From a virus (lineage: Duplodnaviria > Caudoviricetes), in the IMG/VR virus record IMGVR_UViG_3300022707_001565, positions 1-52,788 of that record: a DNA stretch of 52,788 bases, one strand, 5' to 3'. The position numbers and the translations under genes were made by a program. The notes beneath the pieces were generated by a model. The model was not told the origin of the DNA, searched no databases, and saw only the letters and a list, made by a program, of their open reading frames with translations. Positions 10,015 to 35,809 of this stretch are shown here, in pieces; positions within the stretch are counted from its first letter, which is position 1, and every line of letters starts with the position of its first letter.

Positions 10015-10093
10015 AGTCGATAAGAATTCATAAAAGATGCTGAAAAAACCAAAGCGTACCGAAAGGATGTAAAAGTGGCAAAAACATTGAGAG

Positions 10094-10635
10094 ACTGGGT
10101 TTCAACTGGGTATCCTTAGAGGAAACTTTGGCATAAAATCAGGGGTTTTTGGCAAAGTTGGAGTGTAATATTTTCTTACGATACGCCGTAACCCCTTGTC
10201 AGACTACATTTTACATGGACAGCTGGTCAAAAGACTGGGTTTCTTAGAACCCCCTAGTAATTAGCGTAAACCCTTGGTATCAATACAATTAAAAAGTTCA
10301 ACTAACCCCTTAATACTGGGTAACTAGGTACGTTTTGGTCTAAGCTCGGACGATTTTGCTAGGAGTGGAGCACGTCTACTCGACTATATATAATCAATTC
10401 TAAATATAACTGAGGTAAAGAATATGGCTTAACCCAGTTGCCTTTGCCATTCCTTCAAACATAAACCATTCACACAACTCAACTTACCACGATACTGGGT
10501 TCTAGAAAAATCATTGTTTTCTTTTTTCTTTATTAATATAATATCATATATATAATAGACATACGACAGAATGCCTTTTAAATCGTACCCAGTTATTTTA
10601 CACATAAAAACTGGGTACAGAGCTTCAAACCCAGT
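10094..10635. repeat. Dispersed ACTGGGT/ACCCAGT heptamer array in the divergent intergenic region
   Basis: Nine exact copies at 10094, 10105, 10234, 10315, 10432, 10494, 10587, 10610 and 10629, plus an AT-rich tract at about 10510-10560. Confidence 0.85.
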
Positions 10636-10649
10636 TAGGAATAAAAACT

Positions 10650-11141
10650 ATGGATATAGTTGAAAAAGATATGGAGGCATCTGATCCACAGCCAAACATC
10701 ATTCATGGCTATAAATTAATTAAGAGGGGGTTAATAGCACCAAATGACATGTATTGGGCCCCAGAAAGAAAAGATTGGATACTCATGTCTGCAGGTCATT
10801 CCTATGTAGGACGTAAAATAATTCATGTAGGGCGAGTCATTAGACCACAAGACCAAACCATCAAAGAGGCAGGACGACAATTCAAAATCTATCGCTATGA
10901 AATACATGGCCAAGCAAACAGGCGTGGCATAGTCACAGCCCTGATGTATGCGGTTACGATTCGCCGCAATACCCACTTCAAACATTTAGTGGCTACCATC
11001 ACATGCACAGAAATGCAGTTCAAGTCGATAATTCAAATGCTCCACAGACCAGCAATGGCCAATATAAACTTCGATGACATCGAACATTTCCACACAGCAT
11101 TTGAGAACAGAGTAGAAGTAACAGGAGAGCGTAATGAGTAG
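10650..11141 (+). CDS. Hypothetical protein (first gene of the rightward arm)
   Basis: 163-aa ORF with AGGAATAAAAACTATG RBS. Confidence 0.65.
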   Translation: MDIVEKDMEASDPQPNIIHGYKLIKRGLIAPNDMYWAPERKDWILMSAGHSYVGRKIIHVGRVIRPQDQTIKEAGRQFKIYRYEIHGQANRRGIVTALMYAVTIRRNTHFKHLVATITCTEMQFKSIIQMLHRPAMANINFDDIEHFHTAFENRVEVTGERNE

Positions 11142-11370
11142 ACAAGAGAGGCGGCAAAAAATCGCAGATAAAATACATATACTGGCCAACAAAGGGAATG
11201 CATATTCCTATGAGTATTACAATCTTGTGCTCTGTGCCTCTCCAACAGATCATGGTTGGGTGGCTACATATCTAATCATCAATAAGGATGATCGCTGTAG
11301 CAATTCCCATTGCTGCATGTCTGCGGGAGAGGCAGCACGCTGGCTGATTGAAATCCTAGAATGGTACTAA
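11134..11370 (+). CDS. Hypothetical protein
   Basis: AGGAG RBS; overlaps the upstream stop. Confidence 0.55.
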   Translation: MSRQERRQKIADKIHILANKGNAYSYEYYNLVLCASPTDHGWVATYLIINKDDRCSNSHCCMSAGEAARWLIEILEWY

Positions 11371-17296: not shown

Positions 17297-17863
17297 ATGT
17301 TGAACCAATTACGAAAACCAAACGTCGATAGATGCCTCGAAGTATTCCACGATTCGCTTGAGGAATGGTCAGTGTCTGACTGGGCATGCGCTGCTGCAGG
17401 CGAATGTGGCGAAGTGTGTGACGCTGTTAAGAAATTAAGGCGATTGGAAACAGGCGCACCAAATAAGGAAACAGACCCATATGATATTGAAACTGCTGTT
17501 AAGGCAATTGGGGAAGAAATTGCAGACACTATTATCTATTTGGATTTATTGGCTGCTCGATTAAACATTGATTTAGATTGGGCAATCCAAGAAAAATTCA
17601 ACGCAGTGTCCAAGCGATTAAATAGCAAAGTATTTATTGACACATCCCCTGAAGAAGAAAAATCAAAAGATTATCTGGTTTGGGATTGTAAAATTGTCAT
17701 CCCTATTGATTCAGACACGCCAAGCGGATTTGATGCACCGCCAAGATCTGCCGCATGCGCGGCAGTAGAAGCGGCAGGCTTTGAAGTGCTTGGTTGTTTC
17801 TCTGGCTGGAATGGCAATTTAGAAAAAAGGGAATTACAGGTCTTAGAAAGCAATCCATTGTGA
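17297..17863 (+). CDS. MazG-like nucleotide pyrophosphohydrolase with an extra C-terminal domain
   Basis: AAGECGEVCDAVKK...EEIADTIIYLDLLA...QEKFN (ExxE...ExxD MazG motif). Confidence 0.85.
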   Translation: MLNQLRKPNVDRCLEVFHDSLEEWSVSDWACAAAGECGEVCDAVKKLRRLETGAPNKETDPYDIETAVKAIGEEIADTIIYLDLLAARLNIDLDWAIQEKFNAVSKRLNSKVFIDTSPEEEKSKDYLVWDCKIVIPIDSDTPSGFDAPPRSAACAAVEAAGFEVLGCFSGWNGNLEKRELQVLESNPL

Positions 17864-21169: not shown

Positions 21170-21447
21170 TGTTAACACATTGCCCTTTTTGTGATAGACT
21201 TTTAGATAATACAATGGTTAAAGTTATTGGGAGTCAAAGAAAAGTTGGGCAATTGCATTGTTCTATTCATGGACATATAGATGCAGATATTGAAGCACTA
21301 GGGACAAAACATTTAGCACTGAAAAAGATCTTTGCAAAGTATCATGAACAAACCGAAATATTTATGGGTGATAAAATATCAGATATAGAAAGAGTATTCA
21401 CGCCAGCAGAATGGGAAGCCATAGAAAGTTTAAATAATGAATCCTAA
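21169..21447 (+). CDS. Hypothetical zinc-binding protein
   Basis: CPFC...CSIH; TAATG coupling. Confidence 0.55.
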   Translation: MLTHCPFCDRLLDNTMVKVIGSQRKVGQLHCSIHGHIDADIEALGTKHLALKKIFAKYHEQTEIFMGDKISDIERVFTPAEWEAIESLNNES

Positions 21448-21973
21448 TGAAACAATTAATAAATGGCTTGATGAACACAAAGCTGAATATATAACACTAC
21501 CTTACCACCATGTGCAGAAAGCTCATTATTTAATCGCGGGCGAATATGAAAAGCTAAATGCATTCCCTAGTAGAGTTGAAGCCATCGATGATTATTTAAA
21601 AGATAAGTATGAGAAAATCAAACAGGCATGCTTTGATGAGAAAATGATAACCTTATCAACAATGGCCACATTGAAAGTGCCATTGCTTGATGAATATATT
21701 AAAGGTGAAGATATTATTGGAGCCATAAATAATAATATTTATAATGCACATGGTGTCCAAGGGCAGGTATTAACAACGGATGTTGAAGATGATGCTTTTG
21801 AGTTTTTGGACAGTGCAGTCAAAAATTTGGTTGCTACCTTTATGACCCGATTTAAAATAAAAACACATGTCCATATAATGTGCCACCCAAGACAACATGC
21901 AATGGGCACAGAAGAAATGCAGGATTTTCTATTAAAGTATGAAACAAAAAAGAAGCTGGCCAGTAATGAATAA
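21437..21973 (+). CDS. Hypothetical protein
   Basis: 178-aa ORF. Confidence 0.6.
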   Translation: MNPNETINKWLDEHKAEYITLPYHHVQKAHYLIAGEYEKLNAFPSRVEAIDDYLKDKYEKIKQACFDEKMITLSTMATLKVPLLDEYIKGEDIIGAINNNIYNAHGVQGQVLTTDVEDDAFEFLDSAVKNLVATFMTRFKIKTHVHIMCHPRQHAMGTEEMQDFLLKYETKKKLASNE

Positions 21974-22456: not shown

Positions 22457-24817
22457 ATGAGTGATAGCGCATATGAACAAATCAAACAGTATGTTGACAA
22501 TGGGTGGAAGCTTGTACCAATTCCACGTGGTTCTAAAGCACCAAAAGGAAAGCATGCGAAGGGTTGGCAAACTAATTTTATTACAGACCCCATGGCCATT
22601 GGCGATGGTAATTGTGGGATTCTGCTTGGTGAACCATCTGGCTGGCTTATTGATATTGATTTTGACTGGCGTGAGGCAGCAGAGCTTGCAAGCTATTTCC
22701 TTCCACCGACTGATGCAGTCTTTGGGCGCACAACTAATAAATCGTCTCACTATTTATATATATGCAGTGGCGCAAAGACAAAAAAATTCCAGATAGGGAA
22801 AAAACAGGATGGAGGAATGATCTTAGAATTAAGATCAACTGGCCATCAAACCGTATTCCCACCCAGCGAGCACAAGACTGGTGAAATAATCACCTGGGAA
22901 AATCAGGGCAAGCCTGCTGAAATATCTATAACAGAATTAGAATCAGGTTGCCGACAATTAGCAGCAGCAGCATTAATTGCGCGTAATTGGAGTGACGGCA
23001 ATCGCCAAGACTTATCCCTAGCAATTGCTGGATTGATGATTAAGGGCGGGATAGAAGTTGATAAAGTAAAACATTTAATTCAATCAGTGTGCGAATATAC
23101 GGGTGACCCTGAAACTGAAGATAGATTGCGATGCATTACTGTTACTGAAGAAAAAGTTGCTGATGATATACCTGTGGCTGGCTATCAGAAATTAGTTGAT
23201 ATACTAGGGGAACAGACAGCATCCCATATTAGTAAATTTTTAAAAGCATCAGTCAAGCAACAAGTACCAGAAGGATCAATTCAAACATCCAACAGACCCA
23301 GTAAAGATATTGCAAATCATGCGTGGCACCAAATAGCTGAAGAACAGAAAGATGGTCCAACATTATTTCGCTTTGGAAAAGAAATTGCCCGTGTTGACGG
23401 GAAAGTTGAAATATTACCGAATGATAGATTGTGGCAGGAAATGTGTGACCGATTAGACTGGGTTCGATCTATTGGTGAAGGTAAAATTGTTAGGTGTGAC
23501 CCGCCGCAATCAGTCATCACATATATGCGAAATCAGAAAACCAGCAGCATACCATTACCACGATTATCCCATACAACATCCACGCCAGTCATAACTCAAA
23601 ATGGCGATATTCATGCTAATGCAGGGTATGATGATAAAAGTGAAACGTATAATTTTGCTGAATTAAGTCTACCAAAAATAATGGATGCGCCCACTGAATC
23701 TGATATTACTATTGCTAAGGAATTATTGGAGGATGTGCTTTGTGATTTCCCTTTTGTGCATGAGAGTGATAAAGCGCATGCTTATGCTATGATGATTTTA
23801 CCTTTTGTTAGGCCTATGATTAATGGACCAACACCGCTACATTTAATAGATAAACCAAGACAGGGAACGGGTGCAACATTATTAGGTGAAATATGTATGT
23901 TAATAAAAACTGGAGAGCAAATAGCAGCACAGCCCCCTTGTCATCGTGAAGAAGAATGGCAAAAAACATTATTAAGTAATTTAGTGAAAATGCCTGAATT
24001 TATTTTTATGGATAATGTTAAAGCAATTTACTCTATGAGTCTTGCTTTAGCGTTAACCAGTGGCGCATACACTGCACGTAAATTAGGTTCAACTGAAATG
24101 ATCGAAGTCCCCGTCCAATGCACATGGATTTTTACGGGGAACAATGTTGAGATGGGTGCCGATTTCCCTAGGAGAATTGTTCATATCCGTATTGATTCAA
24201 ATATTGAAGATCCAACTAACAGAGTATTTAAGTATTCTGATTTAAAAACCCATGTTGAAAATAACCGTGGTAAATTAGTATGGGCTATTTTAACAATAGC
24301 AAGAGCATGGGTGACATTAGGATCACCACCACCAAAAAAAGATTTACCATCATTCACTTCATGGAGTAATATTGTTGGAGGCATTGTTGAGTTTATGGGT
24401 ATTAAAGGATTTTTGGATACACCATTGGCCAGGAAAAATCGCATTGACCCGTATATGGAATTGGAAATTGAATTTGTAAGATGCTGGGCTGCTCATTTAT
24501 TAAAAGATTTTGACATTTATTATTGCTTGCGATCTAAACAATTGATTCAAATGTGTGAGATGTGCGAATTAGAATATGGACAAGGTGATCGTGGCTATTA
24601 TAATTCCATGGCCTTCACCCATAGATGTATGAATAAATTATCAGATAGAGTATTTACTATTCATACATTAGCAGGTGAACCAATAACTATAAAAATAATT
24701 CGAGAAACAAAAGGTGGTAATGGTGGCTGGGCATTGTCTATTTTTGAATCATCACAAGTATTCTTTGACCAATTAAATTTTGTAGAAATATGGAATGGAT
24801 CACAATGGGACAGATAA
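22457..24817 (+). CDS. Bifunctional primase-polymerase fused to a helicase-like P-loop domain
   Basis: N-terminal Prim-Pol motifs (VPIP..SKAP, NCGILLG, DIDFD, SHYLY, ELRSTGHQTVFPPSEH); C-terminal GTGAT, FIFMDN, TGNN, RRIV. Confidence 0.9.
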   Translation: MSDSAYEQIKQYVDNGWKLVPIPRGSKAPKGKHAKGWQTNFITDPMAIGDGNCGILLGEPSGWLIDIDFDWREAAELASYFLPPTDAVFGRTTNKSSHYLYICSGAKTKKFQIGKKQDGGMILELRSTGHQTVFPPSEHKTGEIITWENQGKPAEISITELESGCRQLAAAALIARNWSDGNRQDLSLAIAGLMIKGGIEVDKVKHLIQSVCEYTGDPETEDRLRCITVTEEKVADDIPVAGYQKLVDILGEQTASHISKFLKASVKQQVPEGSIQTSNRPSKDIANHAWHQIAEEQKDGPTLFRFGKEIARVDGKVEILPNDRLWQEMCDRLDWVRSIGEGKIVRCDPPQSVITYMRNQKTSSIPLPRLSHTTSTPVITQNGDIHANAGYDDKSETYNFAELSLPKIMDAPTESDITIAKELLEDVLCDFPFVHESDKAHAYAMMILPFVRPMINGPTPLHLIDKPRQGTGATLLGEICMLIKTGEQIAAQPPCHREEEWQKTLLSNLVKMPEFIFMDNVKAIYSMSLALALTSGAYTARKLGSTEMIEVPVQCTWIFTGNNVEMGADFPRRIVHIRIDSNIEDPTNRVFKYSDLKTHVENNRGKLVWAILTIARAWVTLGSPPPKKDLPSFTSWSNIVGGIVEFMGIKGFLDTPLARKNRIDPYMELEIEFVRCWAAHLLKDFDIYYCLRSKQLIQMCEMCELEYGQGDRGYYNSMAFTHRCMNKLSDRVFTIHTLAGEPITIKIIRETKGGNGGWALSIFESSQVFFDQLNFVEIWNGSQWDR

Positions 24818-24876: not shown

Positions 24877-25251
24877 ATGATGCCGACCGTTTATGTAACG
24901 CAACGTCCACAACGCAGTAAGGCTGGTTGGAAGCCCAATCTATTGCCTGCTACTGTTTATGGTGAACTTAAATATGTTTTTGAAAGTGATGATTATGTTT
25001 TTTCATCACCAAATGAAAGCATGGCCAAAGCAAAAGAAATTCTCAACCAATTTGATCCGAGTGTTGATTATATATTATATCCTAACACTGGTGATCCTGC
25101 TGCTATCTATGCTATCTGTTTAATTCTTGGTTATTGGTTTAGCCAGTGCACCATTAATTTTTTATATTGGGACAGAACTATAGATGAAGATGGGAACCGA
25201 TCACACGATAAAGGATCATATAAAGTCATACCAATGCCACTTCACAATTAA
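24877..25251 (+). CDS. Hypothetical protein (replication module)
   Basis: AGGAG RBS; PATVYGEL...DYIL..GDP...LYWDR. Confidence 0.7.
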   Translation: MMPTVYVTQRPQRSKAGWKPNLLPATVYGELKYVFESDDYVFSSPNESMAKAKEILNQFDPSVDYILYPNTGDPAAIYAICLILGYWFSQCTINFLYWDRTIDEDGNRSHDKGSYKVIPMPLHN

Positions 25252-25265
25252 TGAAAGGAATTAAA

Positions 25266-25868
25266 GTGAGCAATACAGATATTGATGTACTTGAAGATGC
25301 GAAGCCTGCAGGATCTGAAGATTTATTACAAAAAATTTATGATTATGCTGATAAAATGCTGGCTGTTGGCACACGCATAGAAAAAGGTGTAATATTGTTA
25401 AAAGAATTGGGTGATGATTATAAAGAAATTGAAACACACATATTACCTGAATTGATGGCTGAAGCTGGCATGAAGGAATTTACTACTGAAGCAGGTAAAT
25501 TTAAAATCAAAGATATATTAAAAGCATCATTGCCAAGCAAAGGTGCTATTGATAAAGCTAAGGGTGAAGAAAGAGACAAGCTTGAAGATAGACTTGCCAG
25601 AGCATTAGTCTGGTTGCGAGAGCACGAAGCTGAATCTTTAATCAAAAATATTATATCTGCAGATGTTGGTAAAGATAATGAGATTGCTGATAAAATAGTT
25701 AAATTTCTAACTAAAATTAAAGCTGTGTACAAGAGAGATGAAAATGTTAATGGTAATACGTTATCATCTTACATTAAAGAACAAATTGGCGCTGGTGTTG
25801 AAATTGATTTTGAATTGTTTGGCGTGTTTTCCGGTAAACAAGTTAAGGTGACCAAGGCCAAAAAATAA
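25266..25868 (+). CDS. Hypothetical protein (replication module)
   Basis: GTG start with AAAGGAATTAAAGTG context; LPELMAEAG...WLREH..ESLIKN. Confidence 0.7.
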   Translation: MSNTDIDVLEDAKPAGSEDLLQKIYDYADKMLAVGTRIEKGVILLKELGDDYKEIETHILPELMAEAGMKEFTTEAGKFKIKDILKASLPSKGAIDKAKGEERDKLEDRLARALVWLREHEAESLIKNIISADVGKDNEIADKIVKFLTKIKAVYKRDENVNGNTLSSYIKEQIGAGVEIDFELFGVFSGKQVKVTKAKK

Positions 25869-25871
25869 ATG

Positions 25872-25898
25872 TTTACTCTAGTAAAAATGAATTATAAC
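25872..25898 (+). promoter_or_regulatory. Putative promoter
   Basis: TTTACT-N15-TATAAC. Confidence 0.55.
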
Positions 25899-25938
25899 AC
25901 AGGACCAAAATAAGCCTACTATCCAAGAAAGGACACTC

Positions 25939-26760
25939 ATGGCTAATAAAAATGAAGTTGCAGGTTCTTCACCAAAATCTGTTGCCATCCCTGATGATAT
26001 TGATTTACTTGATGATGCAGGCTCTGGTGGTGAAACCATCGACAAAGATGATTTGGCAATCCCACGTATTAATATATTGCAGGCATTAAGCCCACAATGT
26101 TTAATTAAAACTGATACATTTATTGAAGGTTGTGAGCCAGGAAAATTCTGGAACACTGTTGAAGAAATAGCCATTGATGGCGAAATTGGTATGTTTGTTA
26201 TATTTGTTTCTTATCGCCGCACATACCTTGAGTGGCGCATCCGTGAATCTGGTGGAGGCTTTATTGCTGACCACGGCAATACTCCAGAACTCATTAATAA
26301 ATGCGAGAAAGATGAAAAGAATCGCATGATTAATGCTGATGGTCATGAAATTAAACAAACTGCTGAATATTATGTATTAATTATTGATGATGATGGCACT
26401 GCTAAGCCTGCTGTTATTTCTATGGTTAGTACACAGCTGAAAAAGTCTCGTCAATTAAATACTAAATTGACCCAGCTACAAATTGATAGACCTGATAAGC
26501 AGGGCAAATTCAATCCTGCATTCTTCTATTCAGTCTTTAAATGTACCACTGTTCCTGAAAAGAATGATGCTGGTAATTGGATGGGATGGAAAATAGAAAG
26601 TTATAAGCCAACCCTGGAATTAGAAAATGGCGCTGAGATTTATAAAGCTGCCAAAGCATTCCGTGAACAAATTGCTGCTGGAACCATCAAAGTTGACTCT
26701 CAGGATAAAGGCGCTGATGCTGTTAGCGAAAATGAAGAGGATGACACCGCCCCAATGTAA
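25939..26760 (+). CDS. Putative single-stranded DNA-binding protein
   Basis: IPRINILQALSPQ motif, aromatic beta strands, acidic C-terminal tail EEDDTAPM. Confidence 0.65.
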   Translation: MANKNEVAGSSPKSVAIPDDIDLLDDAGSGGETIDKDDLAIPRINILQALSPQCLIKTDTFIEGCEPGKFWNTVEEIAIDGEIGMFVIFVSYRRTYLEWRIRESGGGFIADHGNTPELINKCEKDEKNRMINADGHEIKQTAEYYVLIIDDDGTAKPAVISMVSTQLKKSRQLNTKLTQLQIDRPDKQGKFNPAFFYSVFKCTTVPEKNDAGNWMGWKIESYKPTLELENGAEIYKAAKAFREQIAAGTIKVDSQDKGADAVSENEEDDTAPM

Positions 26761-26853: not shown

Positions 26854-27066
26854 ATGGAAGATAAACGCAGACGTGGCCGCCCCAGTGAATTTGATGGATG
26901 TACATTTAAAAAAATTAAAGAAACAACACGCAAAGATGGATCACTTGGCCAACAACAATGGAAAATATTAAAAGATGGAATGACCTATGAAGAATTTAAA
27001 AAGGCTGGTGGCATTCGGAAATATCTTGCTTGGGAAATTAAGCAAGGGCATGTAGTCATTATTTAA
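26854..27066 (+). CDS. Small basic protein, possibly nucleic-acid binding
   Basis: AAGGAATAGCATG start; KRRRGRPS (AT-hook-like). Confidence 0.6.
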   Translation: MEDKRRRGRPSEFDGCTFKKIKETTRKDGSLGQQQWKILKDGMTYEEFKKAGGIRKYLAWEIKQGHVVII

Positions 27067-27092
27067 AGCACATTTAATAAAAGGAATGAAAG

Positions 27093-28052
27093 ATGAAGAT
27101 ATTGGGCGCAGGCATGGCAGGATTAATCGCTGCAAATTTATTACACAGATATAATCTCCTAGTGCTAGAAAAAGCAGACAACTTGCCAAAAAACCATGCT
27201 GCAGTTTTGCGATTTAGAACTGATGAAATTTCTAAGGCTACGCAGATCCCATTTAAAAAGGTCCATGTGTCCAAGTCTATTTATTATGATCGCAAGCATT
27301 ATAATGAATCCAATTTATTCTTTGCCAATATGTATTCAATAAAAGTGACTGGCAGGATATTAACACGCTCAATTATTAATTTGAATGATTGTGAGCGTTA
27401 TATTTCACCACCAGATTTTATTCAGCAGTTATCTAAGGGTGTTGAAATATGTTTTGGAGTAGAGATTGGCAATGATTTATTCAATCACAGATATCCTGAC
27501 AAGATTATTTCCACACTGCCTATGCCATTGATGATGGATATGTGTGGCACTTCTCTTGCAAAACGAAATTTTACGTCAAATCCTATTTGGGTTGCATCGT
27601 GCACCATTGATAATCCTGAGTGTGATATTTACCAAACTGTCTATTGTCCAGATAAAACAAAAGATTGGTACAGGGCAAGTATAACAGGAAGCGAATTAAT
27701 TGTTGAGTTTATTACCAAGCCGCATGATTTTCACAATATGAAGTCTGGACAGAATGATCACGACCAACAACATCATTTTATAAATATGCTTGAGAAAATA
27801 TTTGGTATTGAAGTTGATATGGTTTCAAATATGAAATTCAAAGAGCAGCCTTATGGAAAGATTGCCCCAATGAATGAGGAACACAGAAAGGAATTCATCC
27901 ACCATCTAACTACAGAATATGGCATTTATTCCCTGGGACGTTTTGCAACGTGGCGCAATTTATTACTTGACGATATTGTAAAAGATGTTAATGTCATTAA
28001 GCAATTAATTGAATCAGATTCAACATATGATTTAGCAAAGGCAAATCTATAA
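27093..28052 (+). CDS. FAD-dependent oxidoreductase (Rossmann fold; UDP-galactopyranose mutase-like C-terminus)
   Basis: ILGAGMAGL dinucleotide-binding motif, ISTLP, GIYSLGRFATW. Confidence 0.8.
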   Translation: MKILGAGMAGLIAANLLHRYNLLVLEKADNLPKNHAAVLRFRTDEISKATQIPFKKVHVSKSIYYDRKHYNESNLFFANMYSIKVTGRILTRSIINLNDCERYISPPDFIQQLSKGVEICFGVEIGNDLFNHRYPDKIISTLPMPLMMDMCGTSLAKRNFTSNPIWVASCTIDNPECDIYQTVYCPDKTKDWYRASITGSELIVEFITKPHDFHNMKSGQNDHDQQHHFINMLEKIFGIEVDMVSNMKFKEQPYGKIAPMNEEHRKEFIHHLTTEYGIYSLGRFATWRNLLLDDIVKDVNVIKQLIESDSTYDLAKANL

Positions 28053-28873
28053 TGAAAGTTACCTTATTAAAATATACACCAGATGCTTTAGAGACATTAT
28101 TGTTCACAAAGCAAACCAGATTAAAAGTCAACCCAAATGCAATGGATGAAGTTGCTGCTTGGAGTGATGAAAAGAAAATGTCTGAGTTAGAATATATGTT
28201 GAACACTATCAAAAGCTCATGGGAATTTATTGACTACATATTTGTCATTGAAGATGTTACCAGAGCATTCACGCACCAATTAGTAAGACACAGAGCAGGA
28301 ACCAGCTTTGCTCAACAAGCGATGCGTGTTGTTGATATGTCTGGATTCAGTTATGAAACTGGGGATAGTATTGACACTGAAGAAGCACTTGAATTATACG
28401 GTGATGGCATGGATGAAATTAATGATTGTTATCAAGACCTAGTGAGTGCAGGCGTCAAGCCACAAGATGCTAGGGGCATTCTCCCCACAAATATACATAC
28501 CAACATTGTCTTTAAAGCGAATTTGCGCTGCTTACATGATATGGCGCAAACTCGATTGTGCGTTAAAGCGCAGGGCGAATTCCAAAAAGTATTTAGAGCT
28601 ATTAAAGCTGCAATGATTGAAGTTCATCCATGGACTGAAAATATGATTCAGGTTGCCTGTGCTGCTACTGGCGTTTGTAAATTCCCTACAGTACCAAATG
28701 AAGATTGTCATGTGAAGCCTTTTGTATTTAATCCAAAGACTGGTGTAGCATTTAATGGTGGGCAACCTTACACGCTGGATGAAATTAAAGTGCAATATGC
28801 CTCTGAAGAAAGAGAAATTCAACCTATTGTTATTGGCGATGATGCTGTAACTACAACTGAGAGCCAATCATGA
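28052..28873 (+). CDS. thyX: Divergent flavin-dependent thymidylate synthase (ThyX-family) homologue
   Basis: THQLVRHR, DARGILP and NLR...R...AQGE motifs. Confidence 0.85.
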   Translation: MKVTLLKYTPDALETLLFTKQTRLKVNPNAMDEVAAWSDEKKMSELEYMLNTIKSSWEFIDYIFVIEDVTRAFTHQLVRHRAGTSFAQQAMRVVDMSGFSYETGDSIDTEEALELYGDGMDEINDCYQDLVSAGVKPQDARGILPTNIHTNIVFKANLRCLHDMAQTRLCVKAQGEFQKVFRAIKAAMIEVHPWTENMIQVACAATGVCKFPTVPNEDCHVKPFVFNPKTGVAFNGGQPYTLDEIKVQYASEEREIQPIVIGDDAVTTTESQS

Positions 28874-29331
28874 GACAGTGGATAATAGTAGACATGGATG
28901 GAACAATTGCAGACTGCAGGCATAGATTGCATTTAATTAAGGATGATGGTAAGAACAGAGAGACGCGCAATTGGTTTCCATTTTTTGAGCAATTGATTAA
29001 TGATGATCCAATATGGCCAATTATTAATCTTATTAAATTATTAGCCACTCAACATCAAATATGCATAATGACAGCGAGAATGATTGAATTTAGTACAGAA
29101 ACGCAATCATGGCTCCAATGGCATGGCGTTATATATGATGAATTGTTAATGCGTCCAGCAGCAGATTTTAGAAATGATGATATTGTTAAAAAGCAATTGT
29201 ATCAAGATTCATTTAAGCAAAGGGATATGCTAAGGAATGTTGCTTTAGTTTTAGAAGATCGTAACAGGTGCGTCAAGATGTGGCGCGAATTAGGCTTAAC
29301 ATGCTTACAGGTTCAAGAAGGGAATTATTGA
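28870..29331 (+). CDS. HAD-superfamily phosphatase (T4 PNK phosphatase-like)
   Basis: VDMDGT motif I, TAR, LLMRP, K, LEDR. Confidence 0.85.
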   Translation: MRQWIIVDMDGTIADCRHRLHLIKDDGKNRETRNWFPFFEQLINDDPIWPIINLIKLLATQHQICIMTARMIEFSTETQSWLQWHGVIYDELLMRPAADFRNDDIVKKQLYQDSFKQRDMLRNVALVLEDRNRCVKMWRELGLTCLQVQEGNY

Positions 29332-30074
29332 TGAGTAATATTGTTGTGACAGGGTGCACAAGCGGATTGGGCGAATTAATTGCTACAAAACTATCAGCAA
29401 ATGGGCATTATATCATTGGCATTGGGCAAGAGGCTGATTTTGATTTGCCTCACATTCATGAATATCATACAGTTGATTTAGCAAGGATGGATGCGCATGC
29501 AAAGTTGGATGCCATTGCACAAGATCACCTGGGATTGGGCCATCGCTTACTTGATTGTGTTATTAATTGCGCAGGCGTTAATATAATAAATTATCTTGAG
29601 AGCGCAACAGAGCATGACTGGTATCAAATGATGGACGTTAATGCAAAGAGCATCTTTTTAACATCCAAAGCATTCTTGTCCAATCTCAGATTAACACACG
29701 GCACCATACTCAATATTATATCAAATGCCAGCCACATGCCAATGACCTGCTCTCTAGCATACAATGCTAGCAAAGGCGCAGCAGAAATAATGACTAAACA
29801 ATTAGCTAGGGAATTAACAAAACGCCATGGCATTACTGTGTTTGGGATAAGCCCAAATAAATTAAAAGGTACAGGTATGAGTGATTCTATTGATAAACAG
29901 GTTATGGAATCGCGTGGATGGAGTTTAGAAGAAACTCAGGAATACCAGCGCAAAGGTTTATTATGCGGTGAAGAAACAGACCCAGTACAATTGGCAGAGT
30001 TCATAGGATTTTTATTAAAGAGCAAAGAGCGTCACAAATATTTAACTGGATGCATCATCCCATACGGACTTTAA
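29331..30074 (+). CDS. Short-chain dehydrogenase/reductase
   Basis: TGCTSGLG, INCAG, catalytic Ser and YNASK; start by TGATG coupling. Confidence 0.9.
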   Translation: MSNIVVTGCTSGLGELIATKLSANGHYIIGIGQEADFDLPHIHEYHTVDLARMDAHAKLDAIAQDHLGLGHRLLDCVINCAGVNIINYLESATEHDWYQMMDVNAKSIFLTSKAFLSNLRLTHGTILNIISNASHMPMTCSLAYNASKGAAEIMTKQLARELTKRHGITVFGISPNKLKGTGMSDSIDKQVMESRGWSLEETQEYQRKGLLCGEETDPVQLAEFIGFLLKSKERHKYLTGCIIPYGL

Positions 30075-30083
30075 GGAACAATC

Positions 30084-30569
30084 ATGGCCATTGAGTTACA
30101 GAAGATAGAACAGATTGCAATTTATAGTGATGATCAGGGTGAGTTGAAATCTGAGTTATCCAAACTTGGGATTACAGAATGGGTTGAAGATATTGTAACT
30201 GCTCATGGATTTGTCTTTGGTAGTGAAGAAACAAAGAGCGTGGCGCATTTATCTTTTAATTATCAACTTGGATATGAATTTGAATTGTTAACATATCTGG
30301 AAGGTGATAATTGGCACAATTCTAGACAGAGTGATGCTTATTTAAGAGGTGATTCATTCCTTAGTCACAAAGGTGTCCACGTAGACAATGCTGATGTGAT
30401 ACGACAACAGATGATTGATATGGGAATTAATATTGCACAGGAATTATGGACTGACCATCACACAAATCCTTATTTAATTGAAAAGAAAAGGAAATTTCAT
30501 TACATTGTTTTTGATACGCAGCATTTATTTGGTTTTGATTATAAAGTCATAGAGAGAATAGAAAAATGA
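30084..30569 (+). CDS. VOC/glyoxalase-fold enzyme (methylmalonyl-CoA epimerase-like)
   Basis: IEQIAI, FELLTY, SHKGVHV, YIVFDT...KVIER beta-alpha-beta-beta-beta pattern. Confidence 0.7.
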   Translation: MAIELQKIEQIAIYSDDQGELKSELSKLGITEWVEDIVTAHGFVFGSEETKSVAHLSFNYQLGYEFELLTYLEGDNWHNSRQSDAYLRGDSFLSHKGVHVDNADVIRQQMIDMGINIAQELWTDHHTNPYLIEKKRKFHYIVFDTQHLFGFDYKVIERIEK

Positions 30570-30940
30570 TAAATACGCCTGACATATTAAAAAAGATGGC
30601 AGAGACATATGCTGAGCGCAATGCAGTGTATGGAGACAACTTTCGCAATGTCGGCAGAATAATGATGATATTATTTCCAGAAGGATTGAACTTAGAATCA
30701 GAAAGTGATTTTACACGCTGGCACATATTTGAATTAATTGTTGTTAAGTTAACCCGCTATTCAATAAACTTTAAAAATGGCGGCCACCCAGATTCCGTGC
30801 ACGATGCTGCTGTTTATAATGCTATGCTTGAAATGCTTGACTATGAATTAACATGTGAGGATGAAGAGGAACATTCAATCTCAGCAAAAGATAAATTCAT
30901 GCAAGGCATTCGCCAGGAGATTAGAAATGATAATATTTGA
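30566..30940 (+). CDS. Putative all-alpha NTP pyrophosphatase-like / nucleotide-modification-associated protein
   Basis: ERNAVYG...KLTRY...DSVHDAAVY resembles the DUF6378/Nmad1-type pattern. Confidence 0.55.
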   Translation: MINTPDILKKMAETYAERNAVYGDNFRNVGRIMMILFPEGLNLESESDFTRWHIFELIVVKLTRYSINFKNGGHPDSVHDAAVYNAMLEMLDYELTCEDEEEHSISAKDKFMQGIRQEIRNDNI

Positions 30941-31469
30941 CACAGAGACAACTGGACTGCCTAAAAAGAAAAACCAGCCAATGGATGAACATCCTGAGAT
31001 TGTAGAATTCGCAGCCATTAAAGTTGACTTTAATACTCTGGAACGAATAGACAGCATGGAATTCCTGTGCAAGCCAATGCGCCCAAGCGATGAAGGTGCA
31101 TTTAAAACCCATGGCATCACAGAAGAAATGCTGAAAGATGAAAAACCTTTCAAGGCGCATTATCTATGGCTGGCTAAATTCTTTTTGGGTGCGCGTTATT
31201 TAGCCGCACACAATGTAAACTTTGATGAATATATGCTCTGGACAGAATTTACACGCATGGATAAAATAACTAAATTCCCATGGCCGCCAGAGCGTATTTG
31301 TACGGTAGAAAAAAGCATGTCAATACAAAACGGGAAACGCAGCAAGCTTGATTTCCTAGTGGAACATTACCTAGGAATTAAAAAGCGTAAAGGTTCCCAC
31401 CGCGCTATGAAAGATGTTGAAGATTTATATGAAGTCATTAAATGCATGAGGGCAGATAATTTATTATAA
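30927..31469 (+). CDS. dnaQ: DEDDh 3'-5' exonuclease (DnaQ/epsilon-like)
   Basis: FDTETTG, AHNVNFD, HRAMKDV. Confidence 0.9.
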   Translation: MIIFDTETTGLPKKKNQPMDEHPEIVEFAAIKVDFNTLERIDSMEFLCKPMRPSDEGAFKTHGITEEMLKDEKPFKAHYLWLAKFFLGARYLAAHNVNFDEYMLWTEFTRMDKITKFPWPPERICTVEKSMSIQNGKRSKLDFLVEHYLGIKKRKGSHRAMKDVEDLYEVIKCMRADNLL

Positions 31470-31484
31470 TCAAAGGAATAAAAG

Positions 31485-32690
31485 ATGAAGTTGACAATAG
31501 AACAGAATGATGCGCTTAATAAAATAAGCAAATGGATAAAAAATACTGACCAGCAAGTATTTTGCTTGGGTGGTTATGCAGGCACAGGCAAAACTACAGT
31601 GCTGCAGGAATTAATTAACAATCTTGATATTGCTCCTGTGTGTTGTGCTCCAACAGGGAAAGCTGCATCAGTATTGAAAAAGAAATTGTATGGAGCAATA
31701 GATGTAAGAACTATTCACAAAGTTTTATATAATCCGCGTGATAGGTCCAAAGCAAAATTAATTGATTTGCAAGTACAAATGAGAAAAAATCCAGCTGATA
31801 AACGGATTGAAATTGCTTACAATAGAGAATTAAAAAAACAAGGTGATGTTACTTTCTCATTAAAAGATATTCACGAAGTGACGCCAAACAGAATTGTTAT
31901 CATTGATGAAAGCTCCATGGTGACAGGAACAATATCAACAGATATAATAAATACAGGGGCTAAGATATTATTTGTTGGTGATCCTGGACAGTTACCTCCT
32001 GTTGGTGATGAAGGTTATTTTAATAAAAGCAACAAAGATTTTATCCTGCAACAAATTCACCGTCAAGCCCTAGGCAGTCCAATCACTGCCCTAGCCAGTG
32101 CTGTACGATTAAATGAACTTGCGCCACCCAAGTCAGATAAAATTAGATGTGTTGGCAGAGGCGTATTACAGGATGAAGATTATTTGAATGCTGGGCAAAT
32201 ATTATGTGGTAAAAATATAACCAGAAGGAAAATGAATAAGTTTATTAGAAAGAAGCTTGGCAAATCAAGCGTGATGCCAACTGAAGGTGAGAAGATTATT
32301 TGTTTAAAAAATAAATATCAAGGGGGAGTGTCGCATTTCATCAATGGAGTGGATGCAATCACTTTATCTGATGCACGATGGGATGAAATGCTACAGTGTT
32401 TTATTTGTGTTATAATGTATGATGGAAAAGAAGTGCCTGTAGCATTTTATGATTATCATTTTAAGTTACATTATGATTCTGAAATAGAGCCAACAGACTG
32501 GCGCGAAAGAGAAGGGCAAGCAGAATTTGATTATGGATATGCAATCACTGTTCATAAATCGCAAGGCAGTGAATGGGATAATATTATAATATGTGATGAT
32601 GGATTTAAAGCGAATGATCATAGCTTCAGACGTAAATGGTTATATACTGCGATAACTCGCGCAAAGGATTCTTTAATATGGATAAAGTAA
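31485..32690 (+). CDS. SF1B helicase (Dda/RecD-like)
   Basis: GYAGTGKTT, IDESSM, GDPGQLPPV, TVHKSQGSEW, YTAITRA. Confidence 0.9.
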   Translation: MKLTIEQNDALNKISKWIKNTDQQVFCLGGYAGTGKTTVLQELINNLDIAPVCCAPTGKAASVLKKKLYGAIDVRTIHKVLYNPRDRSKAKLIDLQVQMRKNPADKRIEIAYNRELKKQGDVTFSLKDIHEVTPNRIVIIDESSMVTGTISTDIINTGAKILFVGDPGQLPPVGDEGYFNKSNKDFILQQIHRQALGSPITALASAVRLNELAPPKSDKIRCVGRGVLQDEDYLNAGQILCGKNITRRKMNKFIRKKLGKSSVMPTEGEKIICLKNKYQGGVSHFINGVDAITLSDARWDEMLQCFICVIMYDGKEVPVAFYDYHFKLHYDSEIEPTDWREREGQAEFDYGYAITVHKSQGSEWDNIIICDDGFKANDHSFRRKWLYTAITRAKDSLIWIK

Positions 32691-32968
32691 TATTTGATAT
32701 TAAAGATGAATCAATTTTTTCTATAAAGTTGATGCAGCAACTTGGCTGTATGCAATTGTTGCTTTATGAATCAGTTTGGGATTTCAATTGGAATATTGGT
32801 TTATTAAAATCCTTTATAGATTTATATAAATCTGATCCCGACGATGAATATATGAATTCTATTAATTATTATAACCGTAATCTTGAGCGTAGTAAAAAAG
32901 AAATTGATGCATGGGTTTTTGGCATTGATCATATAGATAAAAAATTAAGAAATAGGCGAAAAGATTAA
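32678..32968 (+). CDS. Hypothetical protein
   Basis: Likely start MDKVIF, between the helicase and DnaE. Confidence 0.5.
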   Translation: MDKVIFDIKDESIFSIKLMQQLGCMQLLLYESVWDFNWNIGLLKSFIDLYKSDPDDEYMNSINYYNRNLERSKKEIDAWVFGIDHIDKKLRNRRKD

Positions 32969-35809
32969 ATGATCAACATTAAAGTTAGAACAGAATACAG
33001 TTTCAAATATGCCTATGGCCATCTTCAAAAGATAATTGATGCTTGTGATGAAGATTGTATGGGCATCTGTGACAGGAACAGTACATGGGGCCACGTGCAA
33101 TTCCAAAAGAAAATGAAAGAGGCAGGCAAGAAACCTATATTTGGTGTTGAGATTGGTGTGGTTAAAGATGCATTCATAAAAGAAAAACAAGGCTTTAACT
33201 ACATGAGCTTCATTGCAAAAAATAATGACGGGTTAAAAGAAATATATGCACTAGTGACAGAATCCACTAGGAACTTCTACTATGAACCGCGCTTAGATTA
33301 TTCACACATCAGAAATATATCTGAGAATGTTTTTATATTATCAGGCATACTGCCTGACTTTGATCAATTAATAAAACACATGCCAAATTTATATATCGAA
33401 TTGTGCCCTGGATTTATTAATGCACATAATGTGCCGCAATCATATAAAGATAAATTGAAATTTGTAGCAACCAGCAATAATTGTTATCCAAAAATTGAAG
33501 ATAAATTGAATTATACTGTTGCAATAAATTTTGCCAGCGAGCAGACTTATCCTCAGCATATTCTTGATGAATTTGATTGGAAAGAAATATTCCCAGGTTA
33601 TGATGTCAATTATCCTTTAACCAGAGCTAAGATTATAGCAGATCAATGCAATGCAGAATTGCCTAAAGCGCAGATGGTAAAATATCACAGTGATATTAGT
33701 TTGCATGATCTGTGTATTGAGTTGGCTCCAAAAAAGAATATTGATTTATCAGATCCAATTTATAAAGAAAGGTTTGAACGTGAAATTAAACTTATTGATG
33801 AAAAAAATTATAATGATTACTTCTTTGTTATTTGGGATATGTTACGCTATGCCAAACAACATATGCTTGTTGGTCCAGCACGCGGTAGCTCGTGCGGATC
33901 ATTGGTGTGCTTCATTCTCTCCATCACTGAAATTGATCCTATACCCTTCAGCCTTATTTTTGAGCGTTTTATTGACATCAATAGAACTGACATGCCTGAT
34001 ATTGATATTGATTTTCCTGACAATAAACGTGATATGGTTTTTGATTATGCTAAGTCAAAGTATGGTAGTGATTGTGTTGCTCGGCTTGGGACTGTGGCTA
34101 GGTTTAAGGCTAAATCAACAATTACACATGTGGCTAAACAATTAAATATTCCTGCTTGGGAAGTGAATGAATTAAAAGATGCAATCATTGAACGCAGCAG
34201 CGGTGATGCGCGTGCAACATTTTGTATAATGGATACCTTTAAAGAATTAGATATTGGTAAACGAATCATCCAAAAATATCCACACATACAAATTGCCGAA
34301 CAATTAGAAGGGCATGCAACTCATCATGGCCAACATGCAGCTGGTATAGTCGTAACAGAGCACCCTGTTAATTGGTACTGTTCTGTTAATGCACAAAATG
34401 GTGCTACTCAAATTGATAAAGATGATGCTGAAGAATTAAACCTATTAAAAATTGATGCCCTAGGATTGAGAACATTATCAGTAATACAAGATTGCCTAGA
34501 TCAGATTGGTTGGAGCAGAGAGAAAATAATGTGCTGGCCTATTGATGATGAGGGTGCATTTAAAATTTTACAAAATAAAAAGTATGCAGGGATATTTCAA
34601 TTTGAAGGCTATGCGCTACAAAGTTTATGTGGCCAGATGGTCGTGGAAAACTTTGAAGACATTTCAGCCTTGACAGCCCTAGCCAGACCAGGACCGTTGA
34701 TGAGTGGAGGCGCAGCGGAATATGTTGCGAGGCGAACAGGCAAGAAAAAAGTTGAATACATGAACAAGATGGTTGAGGAACTAACCCAAGTAACATTTGG
34801 CGTTATTATTTATCAAGAACAGGTAATGCATATTGCACGCCATGTTGGCAAAATGGAATGGGAGGATGTATCATTTTTAAGAAAAGCAATGAGTAAATCC
34901 CTAGGGAAAGAAATATTTGATAGTTACTGGGAGAAATTCAAAAAAGGTGCTTTGGAAAATGGATTGGCTGAAGATAATGCTAGAGAAATCTGGGACAGTA
35001 TTAATACGATGGGCTCATGGTCTTTTAATAGATCGCACGCAATTGCTTATGGTATGGTTTCTTATTGGACTTGTGTTCTCAAATCAAGATTTCCTATGGA
35101 ATATGCTGCTGCCTGTTTGCGTCATTCTAAAGATGATGAACAATGCATTAAATTGTTAAGGGAGTTGGTGCGTGAAGGTCACAGCTATGTTGACTTTGAT
35201 AAAGATAGATCAGAAATTAACTGGAGTGTGCAAGATGGAATATTGTATGGTGGGTTAACTGGAGTGAAAGGAATTGGATTAAAAACAGCTCAATTGATTA
35301 TGGATAAAAGAAAAGCAGGTGAAGCATTAACTGCAGCGCAACAAAATAAATTAGACAATGCAGCAACGCCTTTTAAACATGCATTCAAACGTGATGCTTT
35401 ATTCAGAGATTTAATTGAGAACCCTGAAAAATATAATATTGCTTCCAAGATAACTGACATTGCAATGATTGATGAAGATAGCAAAGGTGAATTTTTGATA
35501 TTTGGAGAATTAAAAAAGAAAGTCCAGCGTGATCACAATGAATTAAAATTGATTGCCAAGCGTAAATATAAGATGTCTGGCCAAACATTATTTTTAAATT
35601 TAACAATAGAAGATGATACAGGCCCAATCATGTGTACCATTACCAGAGATAAATATAGAAGGCTAGGACATCACATTGTAGAAAATGTTAAAGTTGGATC
35701 ATGGATAATGATCAAAGGGCGAATTGATAGTGCATTCCGATCTATCAAAGTGGCTAGATACAAGATCATTGATCCCAGTGAAGTCGATGTAAGTAGTGTG
35801 ACTGAGTGA
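32969..35809 (+). CDS. dnaE: DNA polymerase III alpha-like (family C, DnaE)
   Basis: PHP domain (TEYS, PIFGVE), GPARGSSCGSLV, FERF, PDIDIDF, HAAG, KIDALGL, FNRSHA, C-terminal OB fold. Confidence 0.95.
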   Translation: MINIKVRTEYSFKYAYGHLQKIIDACDEDCMGICDRNSTWGHVQFQKKMKEAGKKPIFGVEIGVVKDAFIKEKQGFNYMSFIAKNNDGLKEIYALVTESTRNFYYEPRLDYSHIRNISENVFILSGILPDFDQLIKHMPNLYIELCPGFINAHNVPQSYKDKLKFVATSNNCYPKIEDKLNYTVAINFASEQTYPQHILDEFDWKEIFPGYDVNYPLTRAKIIADQCNAELPKAQMVKYHSDISLHDLCIELAPKKNIDLSDPIYKERFEREIKLIDEKNYNDYFFVIWDMLRYAKQHMLVGPARGSSCGSLVCFILSITEIDPIPFSLIFERFIDINRTDMPDIDIDFPDNKRDMVFDYAKSKYGSDCVARLGTVARFKAKSTITHVAKQLNIPAWEVNELKDAIIERSSGDARATFCIMDTFKELDIGKRIIQKYPHIQIAEQLEGHATHHGQHAAGIVVTEHPVNWYCSVNAQNGATQIDKDDAEELNLLKIDALGLRTLSVIQDCLDQIGWSREKIMCWPIDDEGAFKILQNKKYAGIFQFEGYALQSLCGQMVVENFEDISALTALARPGPLMSGGAAEYVARRTGKKKVEYMNKMVEELTQVTFGVIIYQEQVMHIARHVGKMEWEDVSFLRKAMSKSLGKEIFDSYWEKFKKGALENGLAEDNAREIWDSINTMGSWSFNRSHAIAYGMVSYWTCVLKSRFPMEYAAACLRHSKDDEQCIKLLRELVREGHSYVDFDKDRSEINWSVQDGILYGGLTGVKGIGLKTAQLIMDKRKAGEALTAAQQNKLDNAATPFKHAFKRDALFRDLIENPEKYNIASKITDIAMIDEDSKGEFLIFGELKKKVQRDHNELKLIAKRKYKMSGQTLFLNLTIEDDTGPIMCTITRDKYRRLGHHIVENVKVGSWIMIKGRIDSAFRSIKVARYKIIDPSEVDVSSVTE

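Follow-up and report, generated by a model that had tools for sequence, protein, structure and literature searches.

A phage branch of the ThyX family without the folate-site histidine and its coupled flavoprotein: a candidate for non-canonical carbon transfer

The single IMG/VR virus record IMGVR_UViG_3300022707_001565 (52,788 bp, 38% G+C, CheckV completeness 88%), whose whole length is called the window here, carries, according to profile scans of its open reading frames (ORFs), structural genes of a phage as well as a replication module of the DnaE type. Upstream of this module we identified a gene of the ThyX family (Table 1) in which, judging from alignments with solved ThyX chains, the side of the active site that activates deoxyuridine monophosphate (dUMP) is intact, while the whole polar network facing the carbon donor has given way to Ile, Phe, Ala, Ala and Val. 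The protein belongs to a branch that is large and, as far as sampled, restricted to phages, and its start codon overlaps the stop codon of a flavoprotein gene. We lean slightly towards a non-canonical carbon transfer rather than the ordinary ThyX reaction as its function.

ThyX serves as a target for antibiotics. What is known of its mechanism comes from a handful of cellular enzymes, where His53, Ser88 and Tyr91 (numbering of Thermotoga maritima) are regarded as conserved. Either flavin-mediated carbon transfer can proceed without these residues, or the phage branch runs a different chemistry. The family as such is known and the annotation 'thymidylate synthase' is ubiquitous; what would be new is the His/Ser/Tyr-less phage branch together with its flavoprotein partner. 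No description of either was found in a full-text literature search, which did not extend to most subscription journals and bioRxiv supplements. The branch occurs in 362 cultured phages; among the carriers are Pbunaviruses of Pseudomonas phage therapy, whose hypermodification genes are unnamed in the literature searched.

Active-site residues

HMMER was used to align solved ThyX chains with a profile built from 30 homologues (54-63% identical); owing to a tag, the numbering of the T. maritima chain in this alignment is the native one plus 12. The segment MLNTIKSSWEF, counterpart of the canonical GHx(S/T)PxEH, aligns without gaps, and His53 of T. maritima is replaced by Ile53 (28208-28210). Further along the segment Thr55 corresponds to Ser55, Glu58 is kept as Glu58 and His59 has become Phe59. 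Ile53 is invariant in 30/30 homologues, and residues 49-62 do not contain any His. MAFFT alignments with Clostridium phage phiCP34O gp45, mycobacteriophage L5 gp48 and 78 cellular ThyX ORFs from species genomes agree with the profile in that no His is available in the phage protein; some of them place the canonical GH within a four-residue gap of the phage protein. L5 gp48 had been considered as a characterised His-less example and was rejected, as its sequence is canonical (GH, Ser and Tyr present).

The ThyX motif is defined as RHR-x7-S. In the window protein the RHR is kept (Arg78-His79-Arg80 corresponding to Arg79-His80-Arg81), followed by a one-residue insertion, Gly83, and by Ala90 (28319-28321) at the position of Ser88, so that the sequence departs from the motif. 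Within the same stretch Asn85 is replaced by Ala87, Glu86 by Gln88 and Tyr91 by Val93, and Arg90 is kept as Arg92. The T. maritima chain with the highest score against the profile was the S88A mutant, 3g4a. A reading made earlier from the sequence alone had reported both the absence of the folate-site His and the exchange of the signature Ser for Ala after a one-residue insertion, and neither the profile nor the MAFFT alignments with Thy1-family proteins offered an alternative equivalent for either residue. That reading was incomplete, given that the equivalents of Asn85, Tyr91 and His59 are replaced too. No substitute His, Ser or Tyr that is conserved in a branch-specific manner was found in the branch alignment. 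The residues that are conserved specifically in the branch are Lys20, Arg23, Leu24, Thr52, Ile53, Phe59, Phe73, Ala87, Gly142 and Asn147.

The second half of the active site, a series of invariant columns aligned to T. maritima residues 139-206, presents the opposite picture. Arg141, Asn157, Arg159, Arg168 (28553-28555), Gln174 and Glu176 are the equivalents of Arg147, Asn163, Arg165, Arg174, Gln180 and Glu182, and the equivalent of Gln75 is kept in the profile alignment as well. The ARxxLP (Ala140, Arg141, Pro145) and AQxE (Gln174, Glu176) motifs, which the sequence-only reading had listed as preserved along with RHR, are indeed present. Since Arg168, Arg92 and Arg141 are invariant, the dUMP-activating Arg174 and the phosphate- and uracil-binding arginines all have their counterparts. 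Identity to canonical ThyX is only about 20%. The conserved residues suggest that binding of flavin adenine dinucleotide (FAD) and dUMP is very probably retained, as had been proposed, and that activation of dUMP at C5 very probably is too.

The replaced residues have defined roles in T. maritima ThyX. The imidazole of His53 stacks against either the pterin of the folate or the reduced flavin and forms hydrogen bonds to Tyr91 and Asn85. According to the proposed model, the His53-Tyr91 contact stabilises the flavin in an 'OFF' position and shuts the folate site (PMC11940539). Ser88 and Tyr91 lie within hydrogen-bond distance of the hydroxyl of the flavin N5-carbinolamine and are the proposed acids for its loss; consumption of the carbinolamine was lowered in the S88A, R90A and Y91A mutants, more than 100-fold for Y91A (PMC8316439, PMC11940539). 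Activation of dUMP is ascribed to Arg174 (PMC8316439). It is plausible, from the residues replaced, that methylenetetrahydrofolate (CH2-THF) is not the carbon donor of the phage protein.

Identity and fold of the gene

Several lines of evidence assign the 273-amino-acid (aa) protein to the ThyX family. The Pfam Thy1 profile (PF02511) matched with E 4.8e-33 and 115 bits against a cut-off of 24.8, and the match spans the entire profile (residues 4-194 on profile positions 1-191 of 191). The TIGR02170 thyX equivalog was scored just above its cut-off (91.7 against 87.9 bits), and PHROG 85, 'thymidylate synthase', was matched as well. An AlphaFold2 model calculated with the 30 homologues as input reached a pLDDT of 87.5. 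The best Foldseek match of this model was T. maritima ThyX (E 2.7e-10, TMt 0.72), and the top PDB matches were all ThyX chains, with alignments of 201-228 columns out of 273 residues. The gene codes for a genuine ThyX-fold flavoenzyme and is under strong constraint. With canonical ThyX (T. maritima TM0449, 1o26, 4gt9 and 7ndz; Mycobacterium tuberculosis, 2af6) the protein shares the fold, the RHR and the dUMP arginines; it differs by the five replacements, the insertion, a Cys-containing extension of about 65 residues, the flavoprotein neighbour and the restriction to phages.

The peptide quoted in the sequence-only reading is correct, as window:28196-28327 translates as MLNTIKSSWEFIDYIFVIEDVTRAFTHQLVRHRAGTSFAQQAMR, except that its start had been put at 28202, which is Asn51; the quoted Met lies 6 nt upstream. 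The term 'ThyX paralogue' holds for the family and not for the paralogy. This ORF is the only Thy1-family gene of the record (n=1), for which reason 'divergent homologue' is more appropriate, and no match to the ThyA, dCMP deaminase or dUTPase families was obtained among the 72 window ORF translations scanned with Pfam. A blastn search with positions 27000-31500 against cultured phages did not return a match, so this phage has no close cultured relative at the DNA level.

Extent and evolution of the branch

Among the 120 nearest homologues, Ile occupies position 53 in 118 and Ala position 90 in 97. A wider set, consisting of the window protein and 150 representatives of 50%-identity clusters, had Ile, Leu or Val at position 53 in 126 cases and His in only 12, which were the most distant ones. 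Tyr was present at position 93 in 11 members of this set, position 90 was Ser in 91, Thr in 31 and Ala in 23, and RHR was replaced by RTR in 79. Leu at position 53 is exemplified by the actinophage Aikoy gp87. A maximum-likelihood tree of 349 tips, rooted on the canonical phiCP34O protein after 6 fragments of 355 sequences had been dropped, required by Fitch parsimony two changes for the loss of His53, four for that of Tyr91, and 45 changes between Ala and non-Ala at position 90. We read these numbers as one ancient loss of the His-Tyr pair followed by relaxed selection on the Ser. Within the branch, the equivalents of His53, Asn85, Tyr91 and His59 are always replaced, that of Ser88 often.

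In cellular ThyX the situation is different. All 78 of the 78 ORFs recovered by a genome scan retain the His of the GH segment together with the Ser (position 90) and the Tyr (position 93). Where the phage branch has Ala87, canonical enzymes have Ser or Asn. The segment RAFTHQLVRHR, on the other hand, is identical letter for letter in the phage protein and in ThyX of a Leptospira biflexa metagenome-assembled genome (MAG). A profile search of 1.84 billion cluster representatives yielded 10,527 matches at E <= 1e-3 (3,687 at 1e-10, 264 at 1e-30), each being a 50%-identity cluster. Among 185,579 species genomes, a single close relative was present in the best 80 of 245 hits, a protein of 60% identity encoded on a 58.8 kb MAG contig that is probably a phage.

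Inteins were observed within the gene in four branch members (P0136, P0137, P0218 and P0270). In the first three, the C-terminal ThyX part resumes at about position 71 of the Pfam Thy1 profile, near the RHR.

Given that several residues critical in T. maritima are missing, one may ask whether catalysis has been lost and the protein persists in the replication module as a subunit that binds nucleotide or flavin and has a structural or regulatory role. We regard this as highly improbable. The dUMP-activation residues and RHR are invariant or nearly so across hundreds of sequences, and at the replaced positions Ile, Ala and Phe are themselves strongly conserved, a pattern unlike that of decay. 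Inteins favour essential active-site regions, and their insertion in four members likewise argues against a dead enzyme.

The coupled flavoprotein

The gene directly upstream encodes a 319-aa protein with an N-terminal GxGxxG dinucleotide-binding motif. Its stop codon overlaps the start of the ThyX-family gene (TAATG), an arrangement of translational coupling. In a set of 80 related IMG/VR loci, 71 had at least 1.1 kb of upstream sequence, and in 69 of these the flavoprotein gene was located upstream of the ThyX gene on the same strand, 49 times within 100 nt. In cultured phages the flavoprotein was detected in 362 records, and the numbers of flavoprotein and ThyX-like hits were equal for phages of Pseudomonas (292), Escherichia (27) and Serratia (9). 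Phages of Gordonia, Mycobacterium, Microbacterium, Bacillus, Streptomyces and Clostridium gave ThyX hits but were absent among the flavoprotein hits.

The fold of the flavoprotein is recognisable at a distance. NAD_binding_8 was matched with 21.5 bits, slightly below the cut-off, Pfam GLF was not matched, and a phmmer search against PDB sequences did not return anything even at E 10. The protein falls into phrog_4828 (E 3.4e-77), whose function is unassigned in PHROG. Structural rows of the ESM Atlas gave TM 0.77-0.80 to the Amino_oxidase and GLF families. The AlphaFold2 model (pLDDT 79.7) had Aspergillus fumigatus UDP-galactopyranose mutase (UGM) as its top Foldseek match (E 7.5e-11, TMq 0.64), and renalase, the closest in size, was matched with TMt 0.53-0.56. 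The models resemble the group of amine oxidases, protoporphyrinogen oxidases and UGM, with 10-14% identity at an rmsd of about 7 A; the likeness seen is one of fold only, and renalase and amine oxidases are about as close as UGM. A complex prediction for the ThyX-like protein (residues 1-262) and the flavoprotein scored 0.00 in a run without controls and is uninformative on binding. The search for fusions of ThyX with a partner domain returned only the intein-bearing long members and thus speaks neither for nor against a partnership. The unmatched N-terminal part of one long homologue (P0147, residues 1-344) does not match the flavoprotein.

On the basis of the coupling and the residue pattern we infer a unit of two flavoproteins, in which the co-translated ThyX-like protein and the UGM/renalase-like protein would together add a carbon substituent to dUMP by a route unlike the canonical cycle of NADPH, CH2-THF and carbinolamine. 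The difference could lie in the delivery of the carbon unit, in the reduction of the flavin or in the reduction of the exocyclic methylene intermediate. The product would feed the phage DNA, either by giving rise to a non-standard thymidine like those measured in Pbunavirus relatives or as thymidylate that is synthesised non-canonically.

The latter version, a two-component thymidylate synthase producing plain deoxythymidine monophosphate (dTMP), would let the flavoprotein take over the NAD(P)H-dependent reduction of the flavin or the supply of the one-carbon unit, for example from formaldehyde or an amine-derived iminium, and would make the His53-Tyr91-Asn85 gate of the NADPH/folate site dispensable. 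The His53-Tyr91 contact is described as holding the reduced flavin 'OFF' and closing the folate site (PMC11940539), and loss of such a gate fits an external reductant or donor. Renalase and fungal UGM in complex with NAD(P)H are among the best fold matches of the flavoprotein, the genes are tightly linked, and T. maritima ThyX is able to use free formaldehyde (PMC8316439). We nevertheless consider such a system unlikely. The proposed action of Ser88 and Tyr91 on the carbinolamine does not depend on where the carbon comes from (PMC8316439), so that a formaldehyde route should still call for them. Moreover, the distant fold matches do not name an activity, and the phosphatase, the short-chain dehydrogenase/reductase (SDR) and the VOC protein encoded downstream would be left without a role.

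The gene cassette

The flavoprotein and ThyX-like genes are the first of six enzyme-like genes (27093-30940) that overlap or nearly abut each other directly before the exonuclease-helicase-DnaE block (Table 1). The stop of the ThyX gene overlaps the start of the HAD phosphatase gene (ATGA), whose stop in turn overlaps the SDR start.

Table 1. Positions of the ThyX-family gene, its active-site segments and the adjoining genes in the window
Feature	Position	Strand	Basis
ThyX-family gene, His-less phage branch, 273 aa	28052..28873	+	ORF list, Pfam Thy1, TIGR02170, AlphaFold2, Foldseek
MLNTIKSSWEF, residues 49-59, counterpart of canonical GHx(S/T)PxEH	28196..28228	+	profile alignment, MAFFT
ThyX motif RHRAGTSFAQQAMRV, residues 79-93	28286..28330	+	profile alignment, homologue conservation
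Second half of the active site	28472..28579	+	invariant columns; aligned to T. maritima residues 139-206
C-terminal extension, residues 198-262 (about 65 residues), absent from T. maritima ThyX	28643..28837	+	conservation, AlphaFold2 model
Flavoprotein, 319 aa, N-terminal GxGxxG dinucleotide-binding motif, UGM/renalase/amine-oxidase-like fold	27093..28052	+	profiles, ESM Atlas, AlphaFold2, Foldseek
HAD-family phosphatase, PNKP-phosphatase type, 153 aa	28870..29331	+	PF25109 HAD_PNKP, E 4.7e-29
SDR, 247 aa	29331..30074	+	adh_short, E 2e-31
VOC (glyoxalase-like) protein, 161 aa, weak assignment	30084..30569	+	Glyoxalase_4, E 8.2e-4, below cut-off
DUF6378-like small helical protein, 124 aa	30566..30940	+	sub-threshold DUF6378, ESM Atlas, phrog_4889
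Replicase block	30855..35809	+	RNase_T, E 1.3e-25; AAA_30/UvrD_C_2; DNA_pol3_alpha, E 2.2e-66
DEDDh exonuclease	30855-31469	+	RNase_T
SF1 helicase (a small ORF follows)	31485-32690	+	AAA_30/UvrD_C_2
DnaE-type DNA polymerase III alpha	32969-35809	+	DNA_pol3_alpha

Downstream conservation was counted in 67 loci with at least 3 kb of sequence behind the ThyX gene, HAD by BLASTP with the window protein. The exonuclease was present in 54, the DUF6378-like protein in 53, DnaE in 37, HAD in 33, SDR in 24 and VOC in 13 loci. SDR and VOC are thus optional members across the relatives. A VOC homologue in one relative locus (L034) was matched at 1.2e-8, above the cut-off. Sub-threshold matches to DUF6378 were also obtained for five of seven viral-locus homologues and for ORF57 of Pseudomonas phage 14-1, and the window protein reached an ESM Atlas feature score of 0.94 to DUF6378 clusters and matched the C-terminal part of phrog_4889 (E 5.2e-20).

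The same gene order was found in phages XcP1, ECML-117, Ss1, 14-1 and F8, and SDR is also encoded by XcP1 and ECML-117. In 14-1, XcP1 and ECML-117, the protein after ThyX matches HAD_PNKP, and BLASTP with the DUF6378-like protein hits the same ORF, so that both parts appear to be fused.

In the 207 kb Rhizobium phage RHph_TM3_3_6, a Seg-like homing endonuclease and an exonuclease gene lie between the flavoprotein and the ThyX-like gene.

Modified thymidine in related phages

The orthologues of 14-1 and F8 (ORF59), Wifcevirus, Carpasinavirus XcP1 and Cronobacter phage Ss1 belong to the same branch with 38-43% identity. They share Ile53, the lack of Tyr at position 93, four Cys residues (except Ss1), the upstream flavoprotein and the downstream exonuclease and DnaE genes. 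They differ from the window protein by RTR (RNR in Ss1) in place of RHR, Thr at position 90, the absence of the insertion and the fused HAD and DUF6378-like protein. Phage 14-1 furthermore lacks SDR and VOC, and thymidine hypermodification has been measured for F8 and 14-1.

The DNA of the Pbunaviruses F8 and 14-1, long thought to be unmodified, resists restriction enzymes with TG in their site. Nucleosides of mass 362 in F8 and 390 in 14-1 take the place of about a quarter of the thymidines, namely in TG context. In a 2025 preprint these adducts were described as sugar-alcohol ('tetrose sugar alcohol') and 'cyclic pentose' derivatives of thymidine (PMC12191111). The available text of that study names neither ThyX nor any biosynthetic gene for them, and later papers citing it do not add to the pathway. 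Both phages carry a ThyX-like branch member and the flavoprotein. A match to PF00303 (Thymidylat_synt, the ThyA type) was not obtained in 14-1, XcP1, ECML-117, RHph_TM3_3_6 or G001, and Tet_JBP (PF12851) was not found in 14-1, F8, ECML-117, XcP1 or the window record, a result of little weight as the control was positive nowhere. The pair of ThyX-like protein and flavoprotein is the only recognisable candidate for carbon transfer to pyrimidine C5 that we found in Pbunavirus genomes. Wifcevirus phages, which carry the same cassette, were described as considerably resistant to restriction in the BASEL collection (PMC11990801).

A side-by-side comparison of F8 and 14-1 showed that, of the large proteins in the module, ORF57 (HAD plus DUF6378-like) diverges most (80.8% identity; 5772-6836 and 354 aa in F8, 7114-8130 and 338 aa in 14-1). 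The ThyX-like proteins of the two phages are 93.8% and the flavoproteins 97.3% identical. With regard to the different adducts of the two phages, this is no more than suggestive.

Phages with 5-hydroxymethyluracil or hypermodified thymidine offer a parallel to such a pathway. In these, a ThyA-type dUMP hydroxymethylase feeds 5-hydroxymethyldeoxyuridine (5-hmdU) into the DNA, helped by a phage dTMPase and dTTPase (PMC8989533). By analogy with SPO1, SP10, PhiW-14, M6 and ViI, a phage enzyme of thymidylate synthase type may act in the window phage in the same manner, with a nucleotide-type phosphatase and a small helical protein following here; the fold and cofactor of the ThyA-type hydroxymethylase are unrelated to those of the ThyX-like protein. 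No 5-hmdU kinase or aGPT-Pplase was recognised in the window. Another precedent, likened by description only, is PolB, a ThyX paralogue of polyoxin biosynthesis in Streptomyces that methylates UMP and dUMP (PMC5954106). It exemplifies a ThyX paralogue making a C5-modified nucleotide other than the thymidylate of DNA, although as an enzyme of a bacterial biosynthetic cluster. We regard a precursor of modified thymidine, 5-hydroxymethyl-dUMP-like or other, as the likeliest single product, though at less than even odds, and hydroxymethylase activity of the window protein, proposed by analogy, as a hypothesis only. Use of free formaldehyde by T. maritima ThyX and the sugar-type adducts of Pbunaviruses would together fit aldehyde or sugar donors circumstantially, and are not evidence on this protein.

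The window sequence provides a possible, equivocal sign of DNA protection in TG/CA context. Palindromes of 6 bp without TG/CA are depleted (527 observed versus 674 expected, ratio 0.78), whereas those with TG/CA occur about as expected (324 versus 331, 0.98), as do non-palindromic 6-mers (1.00).

A specific version of the sugar-donor idea, which we judge improbable, is that the pair joins an aldose, instead of the folate methylene, to C5 of deoxyuridylate. N5 of the reduced flavin would form an iminium with C1 of the sugar, as in UGM, the activated dUMP would attack this C1, as in ThyX, and the resulting alkylidene would be reduced or trapped by a sugar hydroxyl. The mass of deoxyuridine (228.2) plus an aldopentose (150.1) plus 2H minus H2O is 362.3, that of the F8 nucleoside, and deoxyuridine plus an aldohexose (180.2) minus H2O gives 390.3, that of the 14-1 nucleoside. 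The formulas equal the thymidine derivatives in PMC12191111 if the methyl carbon of thymine is the sugar C1. The same masses result from O-linked adducts of 5-hydroxymethyldeoxyuridine, and the main obstacle is the TG context, which requires a step on DNA. If true, it would represent a new class of nucleotide C-glycosylation or alkylation and a folate-independent member of the ThyX family.

Ordinary ThyX or non-canonical carbon transfer

The competing explanation is an ordinary ThyX that makes dTMP from dUMP, CH2-THF and NAD(P)H, in which the lost residues are compensated or dispensable and the flavoprotein does some unrelated job within the replication module. We hold this to be a strong, if less likely, rival. 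It leaves the near-obligate coupled flavoprotein unexplained, as well as the conserved phosphatase and DUF6378-like genes. It also has to accommodate the effect of Y91A on carbinolamine consumption in T. maritima (PMC8316439) and the 78/78 cellular relatives that keep His, Ser and Tyr, which indicates a strong constraint where dTMP synthesis is the known job.

A number of observations nevertheless weigh against the non-canonical transfer that we favour. The score above the TIGR02170 cut-off makes an ordinary synthase the default annotation, and the full-length Thy1 match and the retained RHR and equivalents of Arg90, Arg147 and Arg174 speak for one too. As the canonical enzyme accepts free formaldehyde, it is not strictly bound to the folate donor, and loss of the His need not abolish dTMP synthesis; Ile53 could still pack on the pterin. 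Tyr91 is not universal in solved ThyX either, the Corynebacterium glutamicum enzyme (3ge9) having Phe at this position, and the free interchange of Ser, Thr and Ala at position 90 implies that Ala90 is not special by itself. His-less ThyX-like genes of actinophages (e.g. Aikoy gp87, and hits in Gordonia, Mycobacterium and Microbacterium phages) do without a flavoprotein hit. The gene is the sole one of the thymidylate synthase families in the window record, 14-1, XcP1, ECML-117, RHph_TM3_3_6 and G001, as would be expected for boosting of dTMP. In RHph_TM3_3_6 (region 3608-11349) the pair lies a few kb from the genes of a HAD-like hydrolase, dUTPase and both ribonucleotide reductase subunits, a setting that suits an ordinary thymidylate synthase.

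Further points concern the modified-thymidine precursor in particular. About three quarters of the thymidines of F8 and 14-1 are normal (PMC12191111), and the TG specificity of the Pbunavirus modification needs a DNA-level step that a mononucleotide enzyme cannot supply. The replacement residues are hydrophobic and do not provide an obvious way to activate water for a hydroxymethylase. In the window, depletion is seen for the 4-mers TGCA (z -3.7) and CATG (z -2.8), which runs counter to the palindrome pattern. Finally, biochemical data on any branch member were not found in the searchable literature. We also allow for a function other than a modified-thymidine precursor, a two-component route to dTMP or an ordinary ThyX, but consider it quite improbable.

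C-terminal extension and neighbouring early genes

The C-terminal extension was modelled confidently by AlphaFold2 (pLDDT 91-97 for residues 201-250) and is not matched by the ThyX chains in Foldseek. Cys170, Cys203, Cys209 and Cys219 are invariant in 30/30 homologues, which substantiates the Cys-rich tail noted in the sequence-only reading. It is, however, not specific to the branch lacking His and Ser. Cys residues occupy the same four positions in PB1-like, Xanthomonas, Escherichia and actinophage members and in the canonical phiCP34O gp45. The tail thus has no link with the missing His and Ser, and we do not count it towards the novelty. In the close cellular relatives it is absent. The Cys cluster probably serves phage-type ThyX as a whole as a metal site.

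Between a primase-polymerase gene (22457-24817) and the cassette, three genes in a row (24877-26760) match Pfam families that take their names from myophage Pam3 (gp32-, gp33- and gp34-like). Two early genes (17297-17863 and 21437-21973) gave weak matches to a MazG-like pyrophosphatase (E 1.2e-4, below the cut-off) and to an ADP-ribosyltransferase PHROG (E 6.7e-4).

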